Assembly: GCA_965153455.1 (NCBI GenBank)
Contig: OZ234493.1
Location: forward strand, 11,832,213 to 11,896,212
Direction of reading: 5' to 3'
Source of the DNA: Sphagnum compactum
Taxonomy: Eukaryota
Length of the DNA: 64,000 bases
Numbering within the stretch: the stretch's first letter is position 1; every line of letters begins with the position of its first letter. A program made the position numbers and the translations under genes. The notes below the pieces were generated by a model. That model had not been told where the DNA came from, ran no database searches, and worked only from the letters and a program-made list of their open reading frames with translations. Positions 33,601 through 64,000 of the stretch are shown piece after piece.

Positions 33601-33800
33601 CCATATAATTTTCTTCAAGTGCAATTAGTAAATTTTGTTGGAATTTTTTAAAAATAAAATCATTAACGTCAACTAACTCTATTTAACACATAAATTTATG
33701 TTATACTTTTTTTTTAAAAAGTCACTTGTTGCTATAATTTTTAAAACATGTCCCTGTGCCCCGAAAGGCCTTTTGACATTCAATTTTGACCATAATATAT

Positions 33801-34447
33801 TGTTGTGATGTGTAGTGTCGTGACGTTTGGTGTCGTAAGGGTGTAAATCCATAATAAATTCTATTGAACAAAAAGACTAAAAGTAGTCAAAGGTAGAAAC
33901 TAATCAACCAAAAAGAGATGCACACACATATATATACAATGCACAAGAAGAGGCTAAGATGAAATTCTCATGTATTAAATTGAAAAGAAGGGAAGAAAAC
34001 GTAATGTATGTAAACGGTGGTTGTGTAATAGCCGCCGTGAGCATCTAAAAATCCTGTTTAACTATGGAGGAAACTCTCCTTGACAAAGGAATTCTAAAAA
34101 AACTTACAAGAGAAGGGAAGAGCTTGGCCTTTTATACAACCGTCAACAAGTTGAAACCCTAAACAAGCCATAACCCTAAAACACTTAAGAACGTACATTA
34201 ACCCTAAAGGCATGATTGGTATTCCCGTAACCGGCCGTCATGTACGAGGCCATGCATACGGGCATGATAGTTGTCGTGGCGTGTAGTGTTGTGACGTTCA
34301 ATGTCATAAGGGTGTAAATCCATAGTAAACTCTATTGAACAAAAAGACTAAAACCAGTCAAAAGGTAGAAACTAATCAACCAAAAAGATATGCACGCACA
34401 TATATATACAATGCACAAGAGGAGGCTGAGATGAAATTCTCATGTAT
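33801..34447 (-). repeat. Terminal repeat block A-B-A (A about 175 bp in two direct copies, B about 295 bp)
   Basis: 33801-33975 and 34272-34447 are near-identical; B is the reverse complement of 61377-61690. Confidence 0.9.
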
Positions 34448-35503
34448 CCCCCCCCATACCTGAGCCGGGAAAAGCGTGGCATGGTCTGAGTAGAAATCAA
34501 GGTGTTGCAGGAGAACATGATGAATAGTACCAAATGCCGACGAGAACTTGAGTGAGCTCCGACTTGAAGCAGAATAGATGGTATCGACCATTACAATTAT
34601 TGCAAAGTAGCATCTGATCAGCATCCTCTGTCCTCTGACATACCTGACATGGATAGTCAAGTGGAGGAATCCAAGATGACGTGATGATGGTAGGATCTAA
34701 GTTCGGCAGGTGGCAGGGTGCATAGTTTTTGGAGTGATCCCGAATTGTGCGTCCGTCAGCTCCTTGCAACTCCAACACACTTGAAAGCCTAATCGCCTTA
34801 ATCATCAAGATAATGCGACTAGAAGAAGTGTCTAGAGTATCATTAGGTTGCCGCTGAAAATACACAAAGTCACCAACATCAAATTGTCTCACTTTAGGTT
34901 TATAACTGCCACCTCATGTGTGTGCATACCGTAAAGTGTCTCGATGCTGTGCAATGGACAAGTTTTCCATGGCCATGGGCATAACCCTCCAAAATAGAGC
35001 AACCTTATCTGTGATGACCCTAGCCCAAGTGGCTAGGGAGTCCAAGTCCACAACCTGGTCCATTTAAACAACAATGGAAGAGGGTGGAATGAGATGTCTC
35101 CCAAAAAGTAGAAAGTAAGAAACGAAATGAGACAAAGAAGCGTGTTTGGACATCCCATAACCCATGGCGATGTAAGGTAGGGCCAGGTCCCAATCCTCTT
35201 TGTTCCCAGTGAGGCAAATCTTTCGAAAACCCTTCTTGCATGTCTGAACCATCCTCTCTGCAAGGCCATCAGCTTAGGGATGATCCTTTGAAATTCGACG
35301 ATGGTCAATGAGAGCATGATCAAGTAGGTCTTGGAATTTTCCTCTGAATTCTGATCCTTGATTAGTAAGGCACTCAGCACAAGCCCCAAACCTACTTAGG
35401 ACTTGTTGTAAGAAAGCCTGGTTGGCGATGTGTGATGACTTGTCCGGTACGCAACAAGCTTGACCCACTTTGAAAAATGCTCAATCATAATCATGATGTA
35501 GAC
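33801..35503 (-). mobile_element. 3' part of a decayed Ty3/Gypsy-type retroelement: integrase + PHD finger, G-tract, then repeats A-B-A
   Basis: rve core MIEHFSKW...RFGACAECLTNQGSEF...HP*ADGLAERMVQT; then YKPKVRQFDVGDFVY and PHD CQVC...LLCNNC...YHLFC...WYYSSC (stop at 34497). C8 tract at 34448-34455. Repeat A at 34272-34447 and 33801-33975, with B at 33976-34269 between them. Confidence 0.88.
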
Positions 35504-35559
35504 CTTTGAAGTTTTCAATTAAATGAGAATATTAATCATTTTGTTGTTGTTGTTTTGTT

Positions 35560-36580
35560 TTGCAATTTTGTTCTATAATTGTTCTCTATTACAACAAAAA
35601 ATTTATTGTGAAGGTTATTGGTCAAGTGCCTCCATTTCTGACTCGACAAATCTCTCAAATTATTATGGATTTTCTTTTTCCAATTGTCTCTGCATGTGTT
35701 CTTAACCAATCACATGGACATAACCTATTTAGTAATGCATTACATTCTACAATTTCCATGAATTTAAAACTTAAGGAAGAAATTCAAGTTTTTCTTTCAT
35801 TTGAAATCCTAATGGATGATGATTTAATTATTGCTAATGAGTTGGCTTTGATGGCTTCTAACATTAGAAGGGAGGTTTGTGGTGTGTTGGATTCTTTCCT
35901 TTCATTCTTAATGAAATATAAAAACAAAAAAACTCATAATATGATTTTTTTGATGTTAGACCTTAGGTTTAAAACCCTTTGTATAGTATCCTCATTTGTT
36001 GAACAAGATCAAAGTGTTAGTTATGTTGGAGAATATGACAAGAAATCTTTATATCTTATGTTGGTCAAATGTCATGAACATTTGCATCCTTTGATAAGGT
36101 TAGATAGAAATTATGCTGATGAAAATATTTTTTATCAAGATTGCAGTTTCAACATTTTTGAACAAAATACAAGTACAAGCGAACCAACAAAAAAGCTTGT
36201 CAAGAGGGAATTGTTGATTTTTAAATGGTACCAATTGGATGTTAAAAACATCAAATGTCCCTTTCAATGGTAGGAGAAACATGAAGCAATGTTCCCTATT
36301 GTTAGTTTTCTAATTTGCCAAATTTTGGGCATTGTTGGATCACATATTAAATTTTTTATAAAAAATTGTTGGTTGGAATGCTTGCTAATCTTAAGAAATG
36401 TCATTTATAAATTGAAAATTTAGAAAAGTTGACATTTGTCAACAAATATTGGTTTAATGACCCTAGAGTAGGATGTAAATCTCCATCTAACTTAATATAA
36501 TTCCTTAAGAGGGATATAGATTTAGAAGAGGAGTTAGAAAAATTTGAAGGTGACTTTGAAAAGGATGAAATTGTTGAAAT
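35560..36580 (+). mobile_element. hAT-like DNA transposase relic (C-terminal dimerisation region)
   Basis: 237-aa ORF with LMLDLRFK, ending DVKNIKCPFQW*EKHEAMFPIVSFLICQILGIVGS, resembling the hAT dimerisation domain; stops and frameshifts; GTGAGAACC subterminal motifs at about 36743-36785. Confidence 0.75.
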
Positions 36581-39502: not shown

Positions 39503-39856
39503 TTGCAGTGCCGTAAAAAAAACACACAAATCAGTCAGTAGCTAGCGGTGTGTAGTTCTCGAGTGCGTTGCGCTCGTCGCCTGCGCAGCGATGGTGGATA
39601 GAGATTGCGCTCGCTCGCGCAATCGATCTCGATCTCCACAAGAGTCGAGGAAACCCTAAAAGACGATTTTGGCACACTGCTTTGTGCGCGTGTGTCGTAG
39701 CAGCTATCATCTGTCGATGGATGACAATCGTTCGTCCTTTGGTTCTCATCCATCGGAAGGAATCGCACCGATGTGATTTTTTAAATCGTCAAATTTCGGG
39801 ATTTTTTTTTTGGGGGAATTTTTTTCCCTCAATATTTGGACTTTAGTTTGGTAGCA

Positions 39857-40000
39857 TTTTAATAACTATTTTTTAAAAAATAATTATTTTAATAACTATT
39901 TTTTTAAAAATGTTTATTTTAATAACTATTTTTTAAAAAATGTTTATTTTAATAACTATTTTTTAAAAAATGTTTATTTTAATAACTATTTTAAAAAATA
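39857..40000 (+). repeat. AT-rich tandem repeat, about 5 x 30 bp
   Basis: ttttaataactattttttaaaaaatgttta repeated head to tail. Confidence 0.85.
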
Positions 40001-60842: not shown

Positions 60843-61376
60843 CATCTGATTATCTTATTTCTATGAATAATAGATTATTTTATTTTATTTTATCTTATCT
60901 GTTTCTTTTTTTTCTAATTCCTTTCCTCTTTTAAATTTTCAAAAAAAATTGTTTAAAGTTGTGACCCTCTTCCTAATATTATGAAATCTCTATTTATATT
61001 TTTACATATGTTCATTTTTGGTAAAAGAAAAAAGAAATGATAATATTTCAGCCATTGATCTAATATTCCTTTCTTCTCATTTTGGGTCTCTTTCAGATGT
61101 CAATAAATTCTTTTTGGGGATTATTTTGATTACATTTCTTAATCCAATTACATATTTTATAAGTGAAAATGTTTTTTTAAATCCATAATAACGACTTGAT
61201 GTAAGATCAAATGATAATATTCTAGAATAACGATTACAAAAAACTATTTTATTTCCAACACAATGCAAGCAAAATGGGGTGTTTGTTTGTAATTTTGGAC
61301 ATATAAGGTTATTTCACATGTTGAAAAATTGGATAGATTTTTTTTTTGGAAAAATTATCAAATAATGGAATAATAT

Positions 61377-64000
61377 TATCATGCCCATATGCATGGCCTC
61401 ATACATGACAGCTGGTTACGGGCATGCCAATCATGCCTTTAGGGTTAATGTATGTTCTTAAGTTACTGTATGTTATTAGGTGTTTTAAGGTTATGGCTTG
61501 TTTAAAGTTTTAGCTTATTGATGGCTATATAAAAGGCCAAGCTCTTCCCTTCTCTTGTTAGTTTTTTTAGAATTCCTTTATTATGAAGAGTTTTTTCCAT
61601 AGTTAGACTGGATTTCTAGATGCTCACGGCAGCTATTACACAGTCACCATTTACATACACTACGTTTTCTTTCCTTCTTTTCAATTTAATTCTAGAAAAA
61701 CTGTTCTTTGTCATTTAATGTTGAAAACGACAGATTTTTCGTGGCTTTGAGTTTCTTGGGTTCCTTTTGCTTGTTGGTTTCTTATGTTCTTGAGTTGTTG
61801 CTACCTCTTCTTTCTACTCTTGTATTGTAGTTACAACAGGAACAACAACCATAACTAGCAACAACGTAAATGAAGGAGAATGGACACTGGAAAAGCTCAC
61901 GGCAACTACTACTGCAAGCTTTTACAAGCCTAAGCTTCCGATCTCACTCATGCCTACTAAGTACCCGCCACACAACTATGCACTTATCTACATCTAGATT
62001 AATTCCTCCTCTTCTTCTTCTTTTGTGCTTTAACTTCTTTGTTGCTCTAGTTCCATCTCTATCGGCTCTCTGCACAAATGATCGAAAGAACAAACGGTCG
62101 TTGAAGAAGCGAATTTTTTTTTAAAAAAAAAATTCTTATCTTCTGCATGCCATCGTTACAAAGCTCGCGGACACGGATTGATCTATAACAGCGCGTACGC
62201 AGATTGTTCTACAGCGCCGCGGACATAGATTGTTTTACAGCACCGCCAACGCGAATTGCTTTGCAACACCACGGACGCAGATCACTTTGCAACTTCGTCA
62301 CAGTCGCCATCCCTTCCATTTTGGTCCGGTCCGGTCCATTCCGTTCGACATTTGTCGCCATTTCATCCAACGCCCGTCCCAGTTCCGTCCGACGTGTATC
62401 GTCGTTTCGTCTGACATCCATCCCGATTCTGTTCGACATTTGTCACCATTCTGTCTGATGTCCCTCCTAGTTCCATCCGACGTTCGTCCCAGTTTCGTCC
62501 GACGTCCGTCCAATTCTGTCCAACGTTCGTCACAGTTTTGTCAACGTCCATCCGTTCAATTCTGTCTGTTTGACCCCTTTCATCCACCGATGTCCATCCA
62601 TAGACGTCCGTTCGTCCAGTTATATCTATCTGGCCCTTTCCATCCACCAACGTCCGTCCAGAAATGTCCGTCCACTAACGTTCGTCCGTCACCGTTCATC
62701 CTTGTCGACACACCATATTCTTCCAATCGTATGTACTACGTACATACGTATCCGATACCGTATTCTTCAAACCGTATGTTGTGTTAGAATTTTGTAGCTA
62801 GTGCTTTGTATTGCTACAAAATTTTGGGGCATGTCTGCCCCTTTACTTGCCATGGTATGAAATTGACCTTCCTAATGACCACCTGTACTTGTATATTCTG
62901 ATGTGTTTTGAGCTTATAATCTTCAGGTTGCAGATACTAATTTAGAGGTGAAGATGGTGAAATTGCGAATTCCTGACCCAGGAATGGATCAGAGCAGCAT
63001 AACATCATGTGGGCAAGACAGTTGGCAAGTACTGCACCCACTCAGCCAGAACCAAGGTATCAATTACAAAATAACACACAATCATTTGAGTCGATTTCTT
63101 TGAACTCGCGATCTTCACGACAATACCATCAAGCGTTTATAGCACCACCATCATTTAGTACAAGTCCTACTAGGAATTCAGGTTCAAGTTACACTACGTC
63201 AACGATACATCAAAGTCCATTTGGAGGGTTTAATCAGTGGGGTACGCCTACTGCCGCACCAACTCTCACACCATCACTGTATATTCCGCTCCAAATCGTT
63301 ACCTCTACACCCATATACACCATGGAGGTCAGTAGTTCCTCTGGGAGAATTGAGAGTTTAGCGGAAGGCCAAGTACCATTTCTTTGAGGGAGTTCAAGGC
63401 AACTTTCTAAACTGTGGTTTGTGAATTGGAGCTCAAGTATGGCGTTAATTACACCGAGGCGTTCGCATTCAAACAACTGGCCCGTTATGTGCACTATGAG
63501 GATTGGATGTCTACGAGCAACATTTTTCGAGGATTTTTGGCGTCACCCAAATCCCCAATTCAACTTATGCCACAGCCATCACCACCCCCTCTCAAGCTGC
63601 ACTACAAGCTGCCATTGCACATCATGGGACTATGCCCAATAATCCAGATCCAGTACCTACTTCAGTAAACCTTCCTCCTCAATAACTCATTGATGCTACC
63701 GCAAACATTCCTCCCGCCATCAATGCACCAGCTTTTACTGATCGAGTGGGGGAATCCTTTCGAATTTTTGAGCTGGAATTTTTTGTTAAAAGTTTTGAAA
63801 AAATTCTGCAGCTCGCCACCATCTCTCGGCAAAAGGATGAAACCCTCAAGATGTTCTACAGGAGGCTTCTCAAGCTCAAAGAGAATATTCAGAGCATCAC
63901 AGACCTAGAAGCTACCCATCGGTATCTTCGTTCATTGGAAGGTACTCCGACACTCCATGCGCAAGTTTTGCAACGAATTTTTTTTAGAATTTGGAAACTC
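61377..64000 (+). mobile_element. 5' part of a second copy of the same retroelement family: repeat B, long leader with CGTC repeats, decayed gag
   Basis: 61377-61690 is B (TATCATGCCC...CAATTTAAT) with TATA-like CTATATAAAAGG at about 61525. Frameshifted gag-like protein from about 62983 (...ELKYGVNYTEAFAFKQLARYV...KILQLATISRQKDETLKMFYRRLLKLKE...). Runs off the right edge. Confidence 0.8.
62300..62710 (+). repeat. CGTC/TCCG-rich degenerate array inside the retroelement leader
   Basis: Repeated cgtcc, gttcgtc and gacgtcc motifs; CpG-rich against a CpG-poor background. Confidence 0.7.

Follow-up and report, generated by a model that had tools for sequence, protein, structure and literature searches.

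A probable Ty3/Gypsy-like retroelement remnant with a PHD finger behind its integrase in Sphagnum compactum DNA

The window, by which we mean the whole 64,000-nucleotide stretch of Sphagnum compactum DNA that was analysed, contains on its minus strand, from 35506 down to 34497, a partial integrase core and an SH3-like C-terminal domain, from which a linker of 18 residues leads to a PHD finger and then to a stop codon. Together, these are very probably what remains of the 3' part of a Ty3/Gypsy-like bryophyte element, one decayed copy from a large and old family; the identity of the element itself can be regarded as highly likely. The copy is a dead, truncated fragment, and nothing in the window functions any more; the practical meaning for this locus is small, namely, that it should be annotated as a repeat and not as a gene. 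In the direction of reading, the coding part of the remnant consists of:

35465–35506, minus strand: what the 5' truncation has left of the beginning of the integrase core (…YIMIMIEHFSKW), in a separate frame from the remainder (frame reading, blastn)
35064–35464, minus strand: remaining integrase core (alignment to the predicted protein P0003, weak rve match, codon counts)
34914–35063, minus strand: helical segment leading from the core to the C-terminal domain and ending at an in-frame TGA (a long helix in the structure model of a relative)
34704–34892, minus strand: SH3-like integrase C-terminal domain (…FDVGDFVY…NYAPCHLP; model of a relative, conserved across 116 distant relatives)
34650–34703, minus strand: linker of 18 residues between the SH3-like domain and the PHD finger (alignment; lower pLDDT of 54–75, pooled pairwise dN/dS of 0.26)
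34515–34649, minus strand: PHD finger of the C4HC3 type (CQVCQ...WYYSSC) with Cys replaced by Tyr at ligand 7 (PF00628, ligand states)

Translation of the minus-strand frame 35480–34497 gives the reading that the initial annotation had quoted, and its description of this segment as a PHD finger with one decayed Cys is borne out. The finger occupies residues 89–133 of the 138-residue window ORF and scores 33.3 bits against PF00628 (E = 4.8e-8 in the Pfam profile search; the curated cut-off is 24 bits), with the relatives scoring 27–50 bits. Of its eight zinc ligands the finger keeps seven, the exception being ligand 7, a Tyr encoded by TAT; this codon is TGT in 36 of the 46 related copies. As had been noted, the frame ends shortly after the finger, with the terminal stop (34497–34499) coming five residues after the last Cys, and a chromodomain is missing: there was no Chromo match either in the window ORF or in the 30 relatives that were scanned with Pfam. 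The TGA at 34914–34916, previously proposed to be a mutated CGA, indeed corresponds to CGA in 35 of 55 related copies. Two more in-frame stops (TAA at 35274–35276 and at 35064–35066, CAA in the relatives) bring the number of C>T stops in this copy to three, and there is a frameshift near 35460. The rve profile matches the remaining integrase core weakly and at profile positions 39–102 only. Similarity to four full-length related elements, as traced with blastn, ends at 35506, which marks the 5' truncation point. P0003, a predicted protein of 929 residues that unites RT, RNase H, IN and PHD in one stop-free ORF, matches the window at 35477–34512 with 78.6% identity over 322 residues in tblastn. 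In the structure model of a relative, the SH3-like domain is folded into five beta strands, with a mean pLDDT of approximately 87–94 over most blocks.

The integrase of this copy lost D1 by truncation and has N at D2 (AAT; GAT in 47 of 63 copies), with E3 being kept. The initial annotation took the E of MIEHFSKW (35465–35488) for the first catalytic position, which has to be corrected: in the alignment with Ty3 Gag-Pol (7q5b), this E pairs with the non-catalytic D of 'vvvdrfsk' (VVDRFSK), whereas the counterpart of catalytic D1 is the D of 'wscdlag', a site beyond the 5' truncation point that the window copy therefore lacks. A replacement of the first catalytic D by E is not supported: the E of MIEHFSKW occurs across the clade, in all 15 close relatives and in 62 of the 66 distant ones, but its position is not a catalytic one. 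In the aligned relatives, the D,D,E triad is largely preserved: D1 is found in all 8 close and all 61 distant sequences, D2 in 13 of 16 close and all 72 distant ones, and E in 12 of 16 close and 74 of 75 distant ones.

Relatives of the element are encoded by 686 of the 699 pattern-matched stretches of moss-type metagenome contigs, and 80 loci were kept; the family size, at least 686 related stretches, is a count in metagenome contigs. The named close relatives come from Sphagnum magellanicum and Calypogeia fissa. Pfam recognizes RT, RNase H, Integrase_H2C2, rve and PHD in P0003, and the same domains together with DNA_methylase in the stop-free P0329. The concern that the finger might lie in a separate frame or in a captured fragment is settled by the single tblastn segment that runs from the SH3-like domain into the PHD finger, in frame, in 39 loci and in the window, as well as by the same frame and place of the finger in the stop-free P0003, P0329, P0327 and P0322. 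These stop-free family members exist as predicted proteins only, and two Sphagnum gene models, P0006 and P0022, are chimeric splices of element parts. The fuller copies show the order DNMT-RT-RNaseH-IN-PHD, with an HHCC finger in the integrase. The C5-DNMT domain (PF00145, cut-off 22 bits) scores 35.6 bits in the read-through of locus L004 and 27.8 bits in P0329, where it is located upstream of RT, approximately 1000 residues away from the PHD finger; the window piece, truncated downstream of this domain, does not contain it. The best PDB match of the family pol is Ty3 Gag-Pol 7q5b (E = 1.2e-94).

None of the 80 loci is intact, the best full-length ones carrying 5 stops over some 900 aligned codons, and all eight PHD ligands are kept in 17 of the 46 close copies. 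A strict ORF-and-regex screen recovered an ORF of at least 150 residues with an intact C4HC3 pattern from a single locus of the 80; because the copies are riddled with stops, this screen was replaced by tblastn-based codon maps. The pooled pairwise dN/dS is 0.33 for PHD (46 copies), RT (73) and RNase H (79), and 0.38 for the SH3-like domain (54), a value around 0.33 among dead copies being a blend of past selection and neutral decay. These ratios indicate that purifying selection on the PHD finger is as strong as that on RT.

Downstream of the coding part, the remnant continues into the terminal repeats of the family, and a second piece lies further along the window:

34448–34455, minus strand: run of eight G, resembling a polypurine tract, directly upstream of repeat A1 (the same run is in the same place in the related locus L009)
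34272–34447, minus strand: repeat A1, ending in …ACGACA and followed by a 2-nucleotide spacer at 34270–34271 (repeat comparison)
33976–34269, minus strand: repeat B2, starting with TATCATGCC (TGTCATGCC in most copies)
33801–33975, minus strand: repeat A2 (…CACAACA), with which the element ends on its 3' side, flanked by ATAT at 33797–33800
61377–64000, plus strand: second piece of the same family, consisting of B1 (approximately 61377–61689), a leader and a gag-like ORF that runs off the window

Past A2 there is no similarity to any other copy, which places the 3' boundary of the element at 33801. The piece at 61377–64000 may represent the other end of the insertion to which the 35506–33801 remnant belongs. 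The layout of the family is B1 - coding - A1-NN-B2-A2, that is, split direct repeats, with the triple 3' block A1-B2-A2 located in the window at 33801–34447. An A-B-A arrangement at the 3' end is found in the window and in 22 of the 54 loci that have any repeat match, 8 loci also having B at the 5' end; among the loci examined, no copy had repeat A at its 5' end, and the element is thus not bounded by two equal LTRs. The element begins with TGTCATG… and ends with …ACGACA, so that its termini are TG…CA. Inspection of the flanks of full-length loci, comprising six distinct full-length insertions, revealed a perfect 4-bp target duplication in four of them, a duplication with one mismatch in one, and none in one. 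The standard LTR reading, with A and B together forming an LTR of 471 bp, was rejected: the 5' end consists of B only, and of the terminal TG…CA, the TG opens repeat B and the CA closes repeat A. The split direct repeats in place of paired LTRs had escaped the initial annotation, as had the dead and truncated state of the window copy and the C5-DNA methyltransferase of the family.

The module extends far beyond the bryophyte family. A phmmer search against 1.84 billion representatives produced 1398 matches at E ≤ 1e-3, of which 434 reach E ≤ 1e-10, and the complete module, from the integrase C-terminal domain through the linker to the PHD finger, is present in 116 of the 150 among the matches listed, all of them distant polyproteins. 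Each of the eight PHD ligands is kept in 111–116 of these 116. In the long relatives, Pfam places PHD after rve in 20 of 21 and Chromo in 0 of 21. More than 100 residues follow the PHD finger in 75 of the 116, so that the finger does not end the polyprotein in every member of the clade.

To which kind of PHD fingers does this one belong? The best sequence matches in the PDB are KMT2D/C, KDM5D, WSTF, Lid, CHD4, BAZ2A/B, ATXR5 and KDM5A/B, and further DPF2/3, UHRF1, AIRE and PHF21A. With Foldseek, the PHD part of the relative's structure model (mean pLDDT 83.4) aligns to BAZ2A in complex with an unmodified H3K4 histone peptide (TM 0.84, rmsd 1.3), as well as to UHRF1 with the unmodified N-terminal tail of H3 and to ATXR5-H3. 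An acidic stretch follows the first Cys pair of the finger. The residue two positions before the ligand His, which we take to be the site of the cage Trp in H3K4me3 readers, is Gly in 105 of the 116 relatives, and Trp is not among the five commonest residues there. By both sequence and model, then, the finger is nearest to solved PHDs that bind unmodified H3 tails. In these traits it resembles the fingers of BAZ2A/B, KDM5A/B (PHD1), AIRE, PHF21A, UHRF1 and CHD4, which provide its best sequence and structure matches and share the acidic stretch and the lack of Trp; unlike these cellular proteins, it is a part of a retroelement polyprotein.

The view that the finger is a histone-reading, insertion-targeting module, put forward in the initial annotation, is a reasonable inference; since the nearest solved PHDs read unmodified H3, this guess can be refined to H3K4me0. 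A PHD finger tethered to the DNA-binding C-terminal domain of the integrase would dock the pre-integration complex on nucleosomes with the H3 tail unmethylated at K4, and this docking would steer insertion away from active promoters. Chromodomains are known to steer insertion in chromoviruses. We consider such steering by H3K4me0 nucleosomes a serious candidate, with chances slightly below even.

Alternatively, the finger could serve the element's own DNMT, sensing H3K4me0 and licensing the methylation of the new copy or its surroundings, as the ADD domain does in animal DNMT3. The presence of a homologous DNMT region in the close family (the L004 read-through and P0329) speaks for this idea, and so do the distant relatives, where such a region is found by blastp in 10 of the 11 tested and called by Pfam in 6 of the 21 long ones; their order, RNaseH-DNMT-IN-PHD, implies that DNMT, IN and PHD could share one mature protein. 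In the close family, however, the distance of some 1000 residues between DNMT and PHD suggests that they likely end up on separate cleavage products, and the finger always follows the SH3-like domain of the integrase after a linker that is short and conserved. On balance, this alternative appears rather unlikely.

A reading of H3K4me3, with integration being steered to active promoters, is improbable. Spp1, an H3K4me3 reader, does appear among the PDB matches, but at the very bottom of the list; other classes, mostly unmodified-H3 readers, account for 58 of the 60 among the PDB matches listed. The structural matches that name a peptide in their titles have unmodified H3, H3K14ac or H3K4me1, and the predominance of Gly at the site of the cage Trp likewise argues against a trimethyl-lysine reader. 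What speaks for this alternative is the link that has been drawn between H3K4me readers and the PHD fingers of other retrotransposons; Grau-Bové et al. (bioRxiv 10.1101/2021.11.30.470311) describe PYGO-like PHDs in elements of cnidarians.

That the finger is a host exon captured by the window copy, an artefact of chimeric gene models or a Cys/His pattern arisen by chance could be suspected from the single intact ORF in the strict screen and from the spliced models P0006 and P0022, but this notion is already refuted by the constant frame and place of the finger in the loci and stop-free proteins, by its E-value of 4.8e-8 even in the decayed copy, and by the conservation of the module in the 116 distant polyproteins. 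Integrase-derived host genes exist in other lineages, but a domesticated integrase-PHD chromatin gene is hardly conceivable at a site that has three stops and a frameshift, lacks the 5' half and runs into the terminal repeats of a family with hundreds of dispersed, decayed copies and target duplications; we give the captured exon no better chance.

The textbook example of how a retroelement selects its chromatin is integration guided by a chromodomain. As in chromoviruses, a small histone-tail reader follows the integrase C-terminal domain in the present family, presumably tethering it to a chromatin state. The reader there is a chromodomain and here a PHD finger; the mark is H3K9me there and likely the unmodified H3 tail here; and the paired LTRs of chromoviruses contrast with the split terminal repeats of this family. 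If the PHD finger is a reader, it would be a second and independent one fused at the spot of the chromodomain, and would thereby offer a natural experiment on the ways in which mobile DNA reaches safe sites; the finger, apparently of the unmodified-H3 type, has long persisted in green algae and bryophytes alike. In the green lineage, Gypsy elements with PHD as an accessory domain include REM1 and Gypsy-7a_cRei of Chlamydomonas; REM1, reportedly described by Perez-Alegre in 2005, is said to be a PHD-bearing LTR element. Later papers count PHD among the common accessory domains (PMC8557442, PMC6673714). In Gypsy-7a_cRei, as its figure legend has it, PHD is located between RH and INT (PMC9940879), unlike its position after the integrase here, and the published passages on the Chlamydomonas elements report neither DNMT nor split repeats.

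By architecture, the family matches the published 'Gypsy-DNMT3' type. KnitGypsy-Dnmt3 of the charophyte alga Klebsormidium nitens is described, in the text and legends of the source (de Mendoza et al. 2018, PMC5890265), as having a Gypsy RT/RNaseH/DDE-integrase polyprotein that includes a C5-DNMT, and a DIRS-type repeat arrangement, 'A - coding - B - A - B'; the name 'Gypsy-DNMT3' recurs in a later preprint (bioRxiv 10.64898/2026.05.21.726589). The kinship, judged by the architecture given in that text and those legends and not by alignment, consists in the C5-DNMT within the pol polyprotein and in the same repeat layout, which reads B1 - coding - A1-B2-A2 in the present lettering. The term 'PHD' is absent from the main text and one text supplement of PMC5890265, and the figures and PDF supplements may show one. 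The hosts differ, with Klebsormidium nitens on the one side and bryophytes (Sphagnum, Calypogeia) on the other, so that DNMT-carrying Gypsy elements with DIRS-like repeats now extend from a charophyte alga to land plants, in hundreds of copies. The DNMT module appears to have moved within the polyprotein, being upstream of RT in the close family and between RNase H and IN in the distant relatives. Our literature search showed PHD to be regarded, in general terms, as an accessory domain widespread among retrotransposons, but gave no account of a Gypsy element, either from bryophytes or carrying a DNMT, whose integrase has a PHD tail, nor of the present family; the family is an addition to an element kind known from green algae. 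With DIRS, Ngaro and PAT elements it shares one 5' repeat, a 3' block of three repeats and an internal junction that corresponds to the joined ends, but those elements use a tyrosine recombinase, in contrast to the DDE integrase, TG…CA ends and 4-bp duplications seen here.

A bolder and quite unlikely possibility is that these elements constitute a self-contained 'epigenetic cassette' of the green lineage, reaching land plants and combining the PHD finger, the Dnmt3-like enzyme and a circle-opening integrase. The H3K4me0-type finger on the integrase would select silent nucleosomes, and the Dnmt3-like enzyme of the same polyprotein would methylate the newly inserted copy; animal DNMT3 combines its ADD domain with a methyltransferase by a like logic. 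Rather than acting at LTR ends, the DDE integrase would open circular cDNA at the internal palindromic junction (…CATGACA-NN-TGTCATG…); such opening would explain the split direct repeats together with the TG…CA ends and the 4-bp duplications.

As for the surroundings of the remnant, the plus-strand ORF at 35536–36273, which adjoins the truncation point, was considered as the C-terminus of a hAT transposase, but this idea was dropped because the ORF has no Pfam match at E ≤ 1 and no longer relatives at E ≤ 1e-5. The window also contains a URT1-like exon of the host, which points to Sphagnum, being 96% identical to a Sphagnum tenellum protein.

The PHD finger that tails the integrase of this family of Ty3/Gypsy-like bryophyte retroelements is an ancient, selected feature. 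In the window, the 138-aa ORF that closes the remnant matches the Pfam PHD model over residues 89-133 (34515-34649; 33.3 bits, cut-off 24), terminates five residues past the last PHD Cys and contains no Pfam chromodomain, which bears out the initial annotation of a PHD finger on the integrase C-terminus without a chromodomain. The frame running on the minus strand from 35480 to 34497 aligns over 322 residues, with 78.6% identity, to the C-terminal third of P0003, a stop-free predicted protein of 929 aa that comprises RT, RNase H, an HHCC finger, the integrase core and the PHD finger. The window copy itself is a dead fragment, as can be seen from the following features:

35506, minus strand: end of homology to four full-length related elements
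near 35460, minus strand: frameshift that splits …YIMIMIEHFSKW off from the remaining frame
35274-35276, minus strand: stop TAA (CAA in 59 of 62 related copies)
35064-35066, minus strand: stop TAA (CAA in 58 of 59 related copies)
34914-34916, minus strand: stop TGA (CGA in 35 of 55 related copies)
34497-34913, minus strand: last ORF, 138 aa

Since homology stops at 35506, this copy lacks all that precedes the middle of the integrase core. In addition, the second catalytic Asp has been replaced by Asn (AAT, versus GAT in 47 of 63 related copies) and zinc ligand 7 of the finger by Tyr (TAT, versus TGT in 36 of 46). Every one of these base changes is a C>T or G>A transition. The sequence letters quoted for this frame in the initial annotation were correct, and so were its guesses of a CGA>TGA change and of one decayed Cys in the finger.

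A word-based search for longer proteins returned 33 relatives with 70-90% identity, those with a named source coming from Sphagnum magellanicum and Calypogeia fissa and the rest being metagenomic, and a scan of metagenome contigs revealed 686 relative-encoding stretches, from which 80 loci were retained. The finger is neither in a separate frame nor a captured scrap: in 39 of the 80 loci, as well as in the window, the SH3-like domain, the linker and the PHD finger together form a single one-frame tblastn segment, and 8 of these 40 sequences are stop-free throughout it. Pol is intact throughout in none of the 80 loci, the best of which carry 5 stops per about 900 codons; all eight PHD ligands are retained in 17 of 46 copies, the majority of ligand losses being Cys>Tyr. 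The ratios of nonsynonymous to synonymous divergence are as follows:

Pooled pairwise dN/dS by domain
PHD: 0.33
RT: 0.33
RNase H: 0.33
Integrase core: 0.42
SH3-like domain: 0.38
Linker (SH3-like domain to PHD): 0.26

The value for the PHD finger equals those for RT and RNase H, indicating that, during the diversification of the family, selection held the finger as strictly as the enzymes.

The fusion extends to deep relatives. A phmmer search with the 138-aa ORF against 1.84 billion cluster representatives yielded 1398 matches at E<=1e-3, including 434 at E<=1e-10; the whole module (SH3-like domain, linker and PHD) was matched by 116 of the best 150 relatives listed, and each zinc ligand is conserved in 111 to 116 of those 116. 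Among the 21 long relatives scanned, Integrase_H2C2 was found in all, a PHD finger after rve in 20, RVT_1 in 19 and Chromo in none, and a Pfam C5-DNA-methylase match lies between RNase H and integrase in 6; two of these long relatives come from the chlorophyte Haematococcus lacustris. More than 100 residues follow the PHD finger in 75 of the 116 listed distant relatives. Conserved sequence of about 70 residues (…G.v.f.G……f.V.y.DG…; columns 300-390 of alignment A1) extends beyond the finger in the proteins P0056, P0144, P0173, P0076, P0085 and P0107. This post-PHD extension, which has no Pfam match in the distant relatives, may be a second reader-like domain.

In retroviral-type integrases, the Asp of the first motif serves as the first catalytic residue (D1), and the Asp of VVDRFSK, on the following strand, is outside the D,D,E triad. 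When P0003 is aligned with Ty3 Gag-Pol (7q5b) by phmmer, 'wscdlagelp' falls opposite 'smdfvtglp' and 'iiiehfskw' opposite 'vvvdrfskr'. Thus, the letters MIEHFSKW are present in the window, but their E, which had been assigned to the first catalytic position, pairs with the non-catalytic Asp. The initial annotation asked whether E replaces D family-wide; at this non-catalytic site it largely does, E being found in all 15 close relatives aligned and in 62 of the 66 distant ones (Asp in the other 4). Asp is kept at D1 in all 8 close and all 61 distant relatives aligned. The E is clade-wide but uninformative on catalysis.

The elements that encode the PHD-tailed integrase also contain METHYLTRANSFERASE. 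On the loci, the FGGIG-motif region follows the protease-like part and precedes RT, and in P0006 and P0022, two gene models of S. magellanicum, it is joined to the integrase-PHD part. The read-through of metagenome locus L004 (X for stops) matches PF00145 with 35.6 bits (cut-off 22), and the stop-free P0329 (1471 aa), which shares a 90% cluster with P0003, shows the order DNA_methylase (residues 112-168), RT, RNase H, HHCC, rve, PHD. The module in close relatives is located as follows:

L004:8400-9440; P0329 residues 41-360: C5-DNA methyltransferase (DNMT) upstream of RT

In 10 of the 11 distant relatives compared, the RNase H-integrase interval matches the first 500 residues of P0329 at 32-41% identity (E values from 1e-53 to 1e-75), so that this is the same DNMT module in a different placement. 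Judging by these alignments, the module has changed its position in the polyprotein, being found before RT in close relatives and in the RNase H-integrase interval in distant ones. P0006 and P0022, annotated as 'hypothetical proteins', are not host genes but chimeras in which decayed protease-like, DNMT, integrase and PHD parts of this element have been spliced together.

What, then, might the finger read? PHD fingers that read H3K4me3 require a Trp two residues ahead of the ligand His. In the 116 listed distant relatives, Trp is absent from the five commonest residues at this position, Gly occupies it in 105, and positions 8-11 past the first Cys are mainly acidic. The best PDB sequence matches of the intact PHD of locus L038 are KMT2D/C, KDM5D, WSTF, Lid, CHD4, BAZ2B, ATXR5, EHD3, KDM5A, DPF2, KDM5B, BAZ2A, UHRF1, KAT6A/B, DPF3, ORC1B, AIRE and PHF21A. 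An AlphaFold model of the L038 C-terminal ORF (184 aa, 26-row alignment, mean pLDDT 83.4) comprises a long helix, a five-strand SH3-like domain, a lower-confidence linker and the finger. With Foldseek, the finger matches BAZ2A 'in complex with unmodified H3K4 histone peptide' (target TM 0.84, rmsd 1.3), as well as BAZ2B, DPF3b, ATXR5-H3, UHRF1 'with unmodified H3 N-terminal tail' and KDM5B PHD1, and the SH3-plus-PHD pair shows a loose match with the Tudor-PHD pairs found in PHF1/MTF2 and UHRF1. These sequence and fold neighbors are mostly K4me0 binders. Our best inference, still tentative and somewhat short of an even chance, is that the finger would dock the integrase onto nucleosomes without H3K4 methylation; the targeting mechanism predicted in the initial annotation, refined to an unmodified-H3 reader, is plausible. 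The main rival, that the finger acts together with the DNMT of the same element, appears unlikely.

Retroelements of this kind have precedents. PHD fingers have been described as an accessory domain that is widespread among retrotransposons and frequent in Chlamydomonas elements (PMC6673714, PMC8557442, PMC9940879), PHD-retrotransposon fusions have been cataloged across eukaryotes (10.1101/2021.11.30.470311), and the streptophyte Gypsy-DNMT3 is known via K. nitens (PMC5890265; PMC12344493; 10.64898/2026.05.21.726589). The word PHD is absent from Neumann et al. (PMC6317226), and the searched text of the literature yielded no description of the bryophyte family, its PHD-tailed integrase or a DNMT before RT.

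The family elements are bounded by split direct repeats, A and B, which in the window follow the PHD stop:

34448-34455, minus strand: G8 run, downstream of the PHD stop
34272-34447, minus strand: repeat A1, followed by a 2-nt spacer and B2
33976-34269, minus strand: repeat B2
33801-33975, minus strand: repeat A2, at the end of homology to all other copies

The A-B-A block is present in 22 of the 54 loci having any repeat match; eight loci have a lone B about 9 kb upstream of it, without A there, and some others have just one A at the 3' end. The layout B1 - coding - G8 - A1-NN-B2-A2, with TG…CA ends and 7-bp inverted termini, is that of the family as read from the repeat block in the window (33801-34447, minus strand) and from L001, L009, L027, L032, L033 and L069; it corresponds to the 'A - coding - B - A - B' layout given in de Mendoza et al. 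(PMC5890265). Judging from the flanks of full-length copies, the element starts with TGTCATGCC… and finishes with …ACGACA. Perfect 4-bp target duplications (TTTA, CAAT, ATGT, CCTT) flank 4 of 6 distinct full-length insertions, L027 and L028 being one and the same insertion; a fifth has a duplication with a single mismatch and the sixth has none. The TG…CA ends and target duplications show DDE-type insertion of DNA bounded by the B start and the A end. The internal A1/B2 junction reads ACA-NN-T(G/A)TCATG in 6 of 6 copies compared and could be a circle-junction-like site of joined ends, which the integrase would open.

Two further features of the window are:

about 28.8-30.7 kb, plus strand: exons of a URT1-like uridylyltransferase host gene (best match a Sphagnum tenellum protein, 96% identity)
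61377-64000, plus strand: second family piece (5' repeat B1, leader, gag-like ORF), running past the window end

The two family pieces lie in opposite orientation, and their element parts do not overlap. The same ATAT flanks the second piece at its 5' end (61373-61376) and the first at its 3' end (33797-33800, minus-strand reading), and their B repeats are 84.1% identical, compared with 82-91% between B1 and B2 within seven single elements and a between-copy median of 75-76%. The matching flanks, the complementary parts and the within-element B identity are consistent with a single insertion, which may later have been split by inversion.

An open frame of 245 aa (35536-36273, plus strand) adjoins the truncation point of the fragment; its by-eye likeness to a hAT transposase C-terminus was unsupported, the frame having no Pfam match and no longer relatives. 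The segment 2524-3443 matches, at 70-75%, sequence inserted within L032 and probably belongs to another repeat family common to the same hosts, and positions 39826-39998 form an AT-rich tandem/palindromic array whose period is 15-30 nt.
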